From positions 1 to 4,041 of the IMG/VR virus record IMGVR_UViG_2663762839_000013: a DNA stretch of 4,041 nucleotides, one strand, 5' to 3'. Source of the stretch: a virus (taxonomy: Duplodnaviria; Heunggongvirae; Uroviricota; Caudoviricetes). Every line of letters begins with the position of its first letter. The first letter of the stretch is position 1. The position numbers and the translations under genes were made by a program. Of this stretch, positions 595 through 912 are shown piece after piece. The notes beneath the pieces were generated by a model. The model was not told the DNA's origin and made no database searches. It saw nothing but the letters and a program-made list of their open reading frames with translations.

Positions 595-777
595 CTACGG
601 AATGAGAGGCTCTTCGGGTTTTGTTCCGGCTGACTGACTGGCACTGATTTTCTCTGCGGCCCTTTTATCAATCTGCCTGCGCCAGAAATCGCGCACTGCC
701 CTGTACCCACCCGAAAGAAGATACAGCACACAGACCGCCGTACAGAAGTACAGCATCACCTGATGAATAAATGTCAT
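595..777 (-). CDS. Hypothetical small membrane protein, 60 aa (one predicted TM helix then a basic tail)
   Basis: ORF MTFIHQVMLYFCTAVCVLYLLSGGYRAVRDFWRRQIDKRAAEKISASQSAGTKPEEPLIP. Hydrophobic stretch at residues ~4-24, then an Arg/Lys-rich tail. Weak SD-like AAGAAA upstream of the ATG. Sits between nanS-p and the 89-aa ORF on the same strand. Confidence 0.35.
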   Translation of the reverse strand: MTFIHQVMLYFCTAVCVLYLLSGGYRAVRDFWRRQIDKRAAEKISASQSAGTKPEEPLIP

Positions 778-795
778 AGTTTCTTACCGTTATGG

Positions 796-824
796 TTGAC
801 AATGAGAACTGTTTTCATTTAAAA
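796..824 (+). promoter_or_regulatory. Candidate sigma70 promoter on the plus strand (antisense to the nanS-p / ORF60 intergenic region)
   Basis: Perfect -35 hexamer TTGACA at 796-801. An AT-rich -10 candidate (TTTAAA / TTAAAA, 818-824) lies 16-17 bp downstream, but the -10 match is weak. A terminator-like hairpin follows about 40-70 bp downstream on the same strand. Confidence 0.25.
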
Positions 825-864
825 AACCGATATACGAAAGCATCTTTTCTTTACATTCTCCATT

Positions 865-901
865 GGGATTACCTCCGCCAGCCTCCGTTCCTGCCGCTGG
901 C
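865..901 (+). terminator. Intrinsic terminator-like hairpin plus T7 tract (plus-strand orientation)
   Basis: 8-bp stem CCGCCAGC (865-872) pairs with GCTGGCGG (886-893) around a 13-nt loop, then C and TTTTTTT (895-901). On the minus strand the A-run precedes the hairpin, so it is not a terminator for nanS-p. Confidence 0.45.
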
Positions 902-912
902 GGCTTTTTTTA

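Follow-up and report, generated by a model that had tools for sequence, protein, structure and literature searches.

A probable Esr41-related small RNA gene beside nanS-p in the late region of Shiga-toxin-type prophages

The minus strand of the 4,041-nucleotide (nt) stretch of viral DNA analysed here (IMG/VR record IMGVR_UViG_2663762839_000013, positions 1 to 4,041; hereafter the window) carries the late region of a lambdoid prophage of the Shiga-toxin (Stx) type. A spacer of 135 nt between its nanS-p-type esterase gene and a 60-residue open reading frame (ORF) of the DUF1378 family holds a short unit on the opposite, plus strand, and its position raises the question of what this unit is: a small RNA (sRNA) gene in its own right, the antisense partner of the ORF beside it, or a set of promoter- and terminator-like elements that yields no RNA at all. 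The first-pass annotation, which rightly located the unit between nanS-p and the 60-residue ORF on the other strand, took it for an antisense sRNA unit in an arrangement like that of a type I toxin-antitoxin (TA) system. The sRNA half of that proposal appears well supported, if indirectly, by homology with Esr41, an sRNA of enterohaemorrhagic Escherichia coli (EHEC), and by the precedent of other sRNAs in the same slot. The TA half is not supported: the RNA overlaps neither the ribosome-binding site nor the ORF, it has no complementarity to them in trans, and the ORF belongs to no toxin family (see below). Our favoured explanation, to which we give a probability of about 0.7, is that positions 796-911 (+) form a self-contained, hitherto unannotated gene for an Hfq-type, trans-acting sRNA of ~80 nt related to Esr41. 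The unit is most likely a real gene, a relative of Esr41 found in most Stx-type prophages, and probably not the antitoxin of a TA pair.

Anatomy and conservation of the plus-strand unit

The unit opens with a perfect -35 hexamer, TTGACA, at 796-801 (+), as had been noted at first pass together with a weak -10 element; the latter is TTAAAA (17-nt spacer) or TAAAAA (18-nt spacer) at 819-825 (+), and both versions fail the -10 rule of a consensus scan. It closes with a rho-independent terminator (875-911, +) made of an 8-bp GC-rich stem, the arms of which, CCGCCAGC (875-882) and GCTGGCGG (896-903), enclose a 13-nt pyrimidine-rich loop and are followed by C904 and U7 at 905-911. This hairpin with its T7 run had been placed at 865-901; it exists, but its true position is ~10 nt further right, still inside the interval 777-912 first proposed for the unit. 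From TTGACA to the end of the T-run (796-911) the unit measures 116 nt, and the nanS-p stop codon (913-915; plus-strand TCA) comes 2 nt after position 911. Folding of 830-911 returns the 8-bp stem as the centroid structure, with a minimum free energy of -17.8 kcal/mol. The minus-strand copy of the hairpin has A7 in front and no U-tail, and the element is therefore oriented as a plus-strand terminator.

Two sRNAs that occupy the same slot in other prophages (see below) suggest where the transcript would begin: the 5' end of PasA, taken from RNA-seq coverage, and that of EcOnc33, taken from the read ends of CLASH (the sequencing of crosslinked and ligated hybrids), each lie 30 nt past the end of the -35 hexamer. 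Applied to the window, the same rule predicts a start near 831 and an RNA of ~80 nt (~831-911, +). The delimited unit of the first-pass annotation stands, with a predicted transcript longer than the ~70 nt estimated there. Within the predicted RNA, UUCUCCAU (856-863, +) is a probable, anti-Shine-Dalgarno-like seed lying in the Esr41-like stretch ACAUUCUCCAUUGGGAUUACCUCCGCC (853-879).

Taken alone and judged by simple consensus scanning, the promoter and terminator elements do not rise beyond chance; a terminator scan calls the site at 891-903, as one of 8 in the window where 4.0 +/- 2.1 are expected. It is conservation that, by our sequence comparisons, lifts the unit beyond chance. By means of the DUF1378 protein we fetched 80 viral contigs with 82 loci and, upstream of these, 36 distinct sequences (one truncated at the end of its contig), and the unit was found in 36/36 of the latter. 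The cassette has a constant order of TTGACA, 17-18 nt, TTAAAA/TAAAAN, a variable 5' part, TTCTCCAT and CCGCCAG-loop-CTGGCGG-T7, with a total length of 114-125 nt. TTGACA is present in 29 of the 30 distinct units, the remaining one having TTGACT; TTCTCCAT occurs in 29/30 and the seed UUCUCCAU is invariant in 29/30, and TTAAAAAA is seen in 17/30, the others being close variants of it. A nhmmer profile of 29 related units, from which the window was excluded, matches window 796-911 with E=5.4e-37.

The terminator was followed through the variants by folding each sequence separately, in place of an RNAalifold analysis of 20 variants that proved uninformative (the variable loops are misaligned by MAFFT, and the 6-7-bp core is constant). 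All 28 transcript variants form a hairpin of -14 to -19 kcal/mol followed by U7-8, with loops of 13-29 nt and an eighth base pair that is C-G, U-G or U-A. Both seed and terminator are retained across units that are only 55-68% identical in the rest of the RNA body, and the promoter geometry persists even in a locus with a rearranged context (L294).

Further loci suggest that the cassette is an exchangeable unit of its own, tied to the side of DUF1378, since it is kept when the esterase end is swapped and diverged when the esterase end is the same. It is 95-100% identical to that of the window in two loci (L009 and L016) with a different allele of the esterase 3' end; L015, in turn, resembles the window closely in its esterase 3' end (99% identity) and its DUF1378 (93%), but its sRNA has only 55% identity in the 5' part and 62% in the terminator. 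The comparison of L015 and L082 (both from IMG/VR) with window 831-911 marks the sRNA body as a hypervariable cassette, and their divergence suggests either cassette exchange or diversifying selection on the RNA.

The stretch 785-912 recurs in 304 phage records, mostly of Stx1- and Stx2-converting phages and including 933W, VT2-Sakai and BP-4795, and none of these 304 records carries an RNA annotation at the cassette. Window 560-1000, which is 96.8% identical to O104:H4-like prophages, is matched in 926 of 5426 complete E. coli genomes, in 600 of them across >=80% of its length. A search of viral contigs with the loose DNA pattern TTCTCCAT-N8-16-CCGCCAG returned mostly chance matches; the 16 real units among its first 80 loci all (16/16) have a DUF1378 neighbour.

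Esr41 and the small RNAs of the same slot

In descriptions so far, Esr41 is a single-copy sRNA confined to the EHEC O157 island SpLE1; it represses genes for haem and siderophore uptake and confers colicin resistance. It is bound by Hfq and represses chuA, cirA and bfr through direct pairing, for which compensatory mutations provide the proof (PMC5286369). When the SpLE1 esr41 locus of strain Sakai was searched with a profile of 29 window-type units (window excluded), the match extended from the -35 hexamer to the terminator (E=6.3e-9 in 6 kb). Conversely, an Rfam scan of 770-930 gave Esr41 (RF02676) as the top match among 4227 families, at 837-911 (+) and over the full model (1-74). Together, the profile match and the Rfam alignment indicate that the window unit is a diverged paralogue of Esr41 (EcOnc14).

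The likeness is collinear: TTGACA is followed by a CU-rich core, ACAUU(UU)CUCCAU.GGG.AUU.CCUCCGCC, and by a GCC.GC/GC.GGCG terminator with U7, and the sizes are close (74 nt for Esr41, ~80 nt predicted for the window RNA). In the RNase E-CLASH table Esr41 reads ACAUUUUCUCCAUGGGGUAUUCCCUCCGCCGGC, where window 853-882 has ACAUUCUCCAUUGGGAUUACCUCCGCCAGC (Waters et al. 2017). The window keeps the seed UUCUCCAU, which also lies in the part that Esr41 contributes to CLASH hybrids with chuA and further mRNAs. More broadly, the CU-rich core of that Esr41 part is UUCUCCAUGGGG...CCCUCC; the window retains UUCUCCAU and CCUCC, with different flanking bases. Esr41 has a rho-independent terminator with a long U-tail, its Hfq-binding module, and the window has the corresponding 8-bp stem and U7. 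The two differ in an extra U-rich insert, UUUUCUUU, in the window, in a weaker -10 element there (TTAAAA as opposed to TATATA in Esr41), and in a G -> U change right after the seed, which weakens the predicted pairing with Esr41 targets. They differ also in setting, which is SpLE1 for Esr41 and the lambdoid late region between nanS-p and DUF1378 for the window; no DUF1378, DUF826 or esterase gene occurs within 1.5 kb of the Esr41 locus. Duplex prediction between the window RNA and the Esr41 CLASH fragments of chuA and bfr gives -17.6 and -24.3 kcal/mol, respectively; EcOnc33 and PasA are clearly poorer with the same fragments (-7.6 to -13.6 kcal/mol).

Of the other sRNAs known from this slot, EcOnc33 stands closest to the window in its promoter. 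It was recovered by Hfq crosslinking and analysis of cDNA (CRAC) in 5/5 datasets, among the strongest peaks, and gives a Northern band of ~71 nt (Tree et al. 2014); the published probe maps to the intergenic region between esterase and DUF1378 in Sakai prophage Sp6. This cassette type accompanies a second DUF1378 clade (~65% identical), which we found in Sakai Sp6, in O157 strain 2159 and in six divergent loci. The EcOnc33 unit has the window's slot and orientation, between esterase stop codon and DUF1378, with a U7 terminator adjoining the esterase gene, and its TTGACA-N17-TTAAAAAA promoter and 116-nt unit length are identical to those of the window. The transcribed body, in contrast, is unrelated (no nhmmer match), with CCUGCAUGUUUUGC as its seed. 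The CLASH hybrids of EcOnc33 involve trans mRNAs, and none of them involves the neighbouring DUF1378 gene, ECs1528. A full-text literature search with RNA sequence strings and the name EcOnc33 returned nothing. At one locus of this type (L292, GCA_013085585.1), a ~370-bp insertion ~520 nt upstream of DUF1378 parts the sRNA from the esterase gene; the cassette has remained on the DUF1378 side, and the esterase stop codon has retained a second terminator copy.

PasA (85 nt) and PasC (79 nt) of E2348/69, a strain of enteropathogenic E. coli (EPEC), lie directly after the esterase on the opposite strand, and EcOnc51 and EcOnc52 have been named as the homologues in EHEC (Pearl Mizrahi 2021, PMC8550237 and its Table S6). 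[quoted passage not shown] All four resemble the window unit in being convergent with the esterase gene and in their TTGACA promoter and unit length of 100-120 nt, TTGACA standing 100-120 nt before a GCCAGC...GCUGGC-U7 terminator; PasC and EcOnc52 also share the distance of 2 nt from terminator end to esterase stop codon. They differ from it in that their loci have no DUF1378 gene. An esterase-sRNA-holin/lysozyme arrangement has been reported by Zhu, Shabalina and Storz (2026), who also remarked on Esr41 Rfam hits near PasD. In prophages of the PasA/EcOnc51 type, the stretch from the PasA promoter to the holin start codon holds a strong intrinsic terminator on the late strand (GGCCGTCAGTGGGTGACACTGGCGGCT and then T5), as in L003 (2732-2758, +) and L086 (~1783-1830, -); the window showed no equivalent of it in the spacer that separates nanS-p and DUF1378.

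The distance of TTGACA upstream is the same in the EcOnc33, PasA, PasC, EcOnc52 and Esr41 units, and likeness among the occupants of the slot goes little beyond such shared elements. The window-type nhmmer profile finds no significant match in the EcOnc33, PasA and PasC loci, the PasC terminator reaching E=0.2. Pairwise alignments of the whole unit score above dinucleotide shuffles (z=3.5-5.8), mostly on account of TTGACA and the terminator, which are common to any sRNA gene; once promoter and terminator are removed, only PasA is weakly above chance (z=2.4). As judged from these comparisons, the window type, the EcOnc33 type and the PasA/PasC types are separate sequence families in one slot, and the window cassette appears to belong to a set of several sRNA cassettes that can stand in for one another between esterase and lysis genes. 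A wider parallel is offered by AgvB, AsxR and the EcOnc08/21/42 group, which are convergent Hfq-bound sRNAs downstream of PR' in lambdoid prophages. Like the window unit, they are small convergent 'moron' sRNAs of the late region, conserved at the 3' end and variable in the 5' part; unlike it, they lie on the upstream side of the esterase, and in sequence they are unrelated to it. AgvB and AsxR, at 51-60 nt, are shorter as well and serve to sponge sRNAs of the core genome.

A trans-acting RNA weighed against its alternatives

If the window unit is a trans-acting sRNA gene of the Esr41 kind, a sigma-70 promoter (TTGACA, 17-18-nt spacer, TTAAAA/TAAAAA) would drive the RNA in lysogens, independently of the Q-dependent late transcript, and the intrinsic terminator with its U7 tail, adjoining the nanS-p stop codon, would end it. 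Hfq would bind the RNA via the terminator hairpin and the U-tail, and the conserved CU-rich single-stranded stretch (UUCUCCAU...CCUCC) would pair in trans with host mRNAs, at their ribosome-binding sites or close by, so that translation would be repressed in the way known for Esr41 with chuA, cirA and bfr. We infer transcription of the window variant, its 5' end, its binding by Hfq and its targets, as well as any additional cis-antisense effect on the late mRNA. What favours an independently transcribed, trans-acting sRNA is the trans repression by Esr41, the trans hybrids of EcOnc33, and the seed and predicted pairing kept in the window. The weak -10 element is compatible with strong expression, given that EcOnc33, with an identical promoter, is strongly Hfq-bound and visible on Northern blots.

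Several results weigh against this explanation. The Rfam match to Esr41 reaches 20.5 bits (E=0.051), far under the gathering cut-off of 102 bits; sister variants score 28-32 bits with RF02676 and Esr41 itself 108.6. The 5' hairpin of Esr41 is degraded in the window copy, as seen from mismatched pairs in the Rfam alignment, and the predicted pairing with chuA and bfr is weaker than Esr41's own (-21.5 and -32.9 kcal/mol). Membership in the PasA/PasC family was tried as well and rejected, for a covariance model of PasA, PasC, EcOnc51 and EcOnc52 gives 8.4 bits (E=0.73) and covers the terminator only. The folding energy of the whole RNA is unexceptional (z = -1.6 against shuffles), and, as the terminator core is invariant, covariation supports a single base pair only. 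The Sakai Sp5 copy (intergenic 1272086-1272219) is absent from the Hfq-CRAC sRNA list, from which sites close to annotated features were left out. Finally, a consensus promoter scan of the window does not call the sRNA promoter, TTAAAA/TAAAAA failing its -10 rule; it fails likewise on the EcOnc33 and PasA promoters, and as the RNAs of these two are detected on Northern blots, little can be read into its silence and we do not count it against the unit.

That the unit is not expressed at all, the hairpin and T-run being a reverse-oriented terminator or a decayed Esr41-like remnant and TTGACA being kept by linkage to the DUF1378 ribosome-binding region, would accord with the weak and uncalled -10, with the abundance of terminator-like sites in the window, with the lack of an EcOnc entry for the Sp5 copy and with the location of the -35 box in a conserved block, only 19 nt from the DUF1378 start codon. 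We nevertheless regard it as quite unlikely: TTGACA-N17-TTAAAA is kept in the EcOnc33 lineage, with its unrelated surroundings, and in the rearranged L294 locus, EcOnc33 with that same promoter is a top-class Hfq-CRAC peak and Northern-visible, and seed and terminator persist where the remaining RNA body has diverged to 55-68% identity. The conserved elements might instead serve the late minus-strand mRNA, the hairpin protecting the processed 3' end of the nanS-p mRNA and GGAGG-N8-AUGGAGAA starting a short upstream ORF that holds ribosomes on the 135-nt spacer. The hairpin does form on the minus strand too, where a Shine-Dalgarno-like GGAGG stands 8 nt before an AUG that belongs to the complement of the conserved UUCUCCAU. 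Such a role is nonetheless very improbable, as the hairpin has A7 before it and lacks a U-tail on that strand, the mini-ORF is not conserved (4 to 25 codons, with peptides that differ among variants), and the same motif is found in Esr41, where the late operon is absent. In the window this mini-ORF spans 863-819 (-) and has 14 codons (MENVKKRCFRISVF), its AUG-GAG-AA being the complement of the sRNA seed. Considered separately as a coding feature, GGAGG-N8-ATGGAGAA was rejected; with 4-25 codons and unrelated peptides across the variants, it is probably not a gene.

A case for action in cis can be built on DUF1378. The ORF (777-595, -, with its start codon CAT at 775-777; Pfam PF07125, E=1.4e-37) has a hydrophobic N-terminus (~25 residues), and its tail carries a net charge of +3; hydropathy and charge thus agree with the 60-residue, single-transmembrane peptide with a basic tail described at first pass, and the family is DUF1378. 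In a type I TA-like or cis-antisense module the RNA would pair with the late transcript upstream of DUF1378 and limit its translation or stability, perhaps along with that of DUF826 and the holin, and DUF1378 would be a membrane-active toxin or lysis modulator. As in hok/sok, ldr/rdl, tisB/istR-1 and zor/orz, there is a small hydrophobic ORF with a short opposite-strand RNA upstream, complementary to the untranslated RNA that precedes the ORF; in the window the complementarity is perfect and falls on the late mRNA, 54-134 nt ahead of the start codon of DUF1378. Moreover, a convergent sRNA cassette lies directly upstream of every DUF1378 examined in both clades (window type and EcOnc33 type), namely in the 82 DUF1378-seeded loci with their 36 distinct upstream sequences, in the 6 divergent loci and in the 2 O157 loci. 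It follows the DUF1378 side upon exchange of the esterase 3' end or insertion (L292), and its RNA body is wholly different between the clades with promoter and terminator persisting, as a purely cis-antisense RNA would tolerate. Yet the RNA covers neither the ribosome-binding site nor the ORF, and its single-stranded part pairs with the DUF1378 initiation region (-52 to +48) no better than shuffled sequences do (-13.7 against a mean of -13.9 kcal/mol; 244/500 shuffles as good). No promoter-like site for DUF1378 was found on the minus strand upstream with what is an insensitive scan, and the gene lies inside the Q-dependent late operon, with esterase and holin on either side of it in related prophages. 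The ORF matches only PF07125 and PHROG 494, both families of unknown function; toxin families of Pfam, NCBIfam, PHROGs and PADLOC gave no match, and neither DUF1378 nor DUF826 hit a toxin or defence family of NCBIfam or PADLOC. Relatives and slot-mates of the RNA do without the ORF: Esr41, which acts in trans, has no DUF1378, DUF826 or esterase gene nearby, and PasA, PasC, EcOnc51 and EcOnc52 fill the slot in its absence. Esr41 and EcOnc33 have documented trans partners, with no ECs1528 entry in the CLASH tables, and the invariance of UUCUCCAU suggests a trans-target constraint that a purely cis-acting antisense RNA would not need. On balance we consider a TA-like or cis-antisense module unlikely. 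As DUF1378 homologues occur only in Escherichia and Shigella prophages with fixed synteny, the linkage of sRNA and DUF1378 may reflect shared ancestry. The invariable pairing of DUF1378 with some convergent sRNA cassette, whether or not the RNA body has been swapped, is compatible with a functional pair and is not otherwise explained. We hold it improbable that cassette and DUF1378 form such a pair specific to Stx-type prophages, in which the RNA acts in cis, by antisense pairing or transcriptional collision over 831-911, besides acting in trans. Were they to do so, the cis action might, in lysogens, shield DUF1378, DUF826 and the holin against nanS-p moron read-through, or alternatively set the timing of lysis and hence of Shiga toxin release after induction, and DUF1378 would be a membrane-active component kept in check. 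A count of synonymous and non-synonymous changes in DUF1378 was contaminated by three spurious ORFs and was not used.

As a trans-acting sRNA related to Esr41, the window unit would be of a known kind, a prophage sRNA of the Esr41 family in a known hot-spot, of which this member was previously unannotated. What is new is that it adds a sixth sequence type to the recognised hot-spot for sRNA cassettes between nanS-p and the lysis genes. It also exposes an annotation gap, since the Rfam cut-off of 102 bits shuts out these Esr41 relatives. If the RNA is expressed, Stx-phage lysogeny would add a regulator with an Esr41-like seed. AsxR, which is carried in the same prophage region as the cassette, affects the chu haem locus.

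Genomic setting of the cassette

The gene facing the sRNA unit encodes a nanS-p-type sialate O-acetylesterase of 641 aa (2838-913, -) with DUF1737, SASA and DUF6645 domains; its relatives in related prophages are annotated as SASA family carbohydrate esterases. With respect to the O104:H4 allele (653 aa) it has an N-terminal indel at 2631-2702, where the BLAST alignment is interrupted. Downstream of DUF1378 follow a DUF826 ORF (557-288, -) and then a lysozyme fragment (-) in late-region order, and the order esterase-DUF1378-DUF826-lysis is likewise annotated in phage Min27 and the O104:H4 prophages. A junction at 211-216 marks the loss of ~750 bp relative to the O104:H4 prophage, comprising the 5' part of the lysozyme gene, a YdfR-family gene and the whole holin gene, so that the lysis cassette downstream of DUF826 is broken in the window. 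At the other end, prophage homology stops at 3388, marked by a truncated tRNA (3337-3389, -) that scores 27.5 bits with Rfam, below the cut-off, and is not found by ARAGORN. The remainder (3389-4041) is a patchwork of short, unrelated core-gene fragments, such as crr at ~3653-3917; together with a window coverage of <=82% in any complete E. coli genome, this makes the contig look chimeric or rearranged.

Two further sRNA units lie upstream of nanS-p. A full-length sRNA of the STnc100/PasD type (3250-3060, -; Rfam RF02076, 139 bits, E=8e-32) ends in a terminator at 3090-3071 and corresponds to the short PR'-tR' type transcript 5' of nanS-p, with no stx genes after it. It is faced by a second convergent unit (2952-3059, +), of which 2952-2986 is the exact complement of the published EcOnc08/21/42 Northern probe and which has its terminator at 3032-3053 with T6. 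A convergent sRNA facing an STnc100-like RNA is an arrangement known in lambdoid prophages (Tree et al. 2014).

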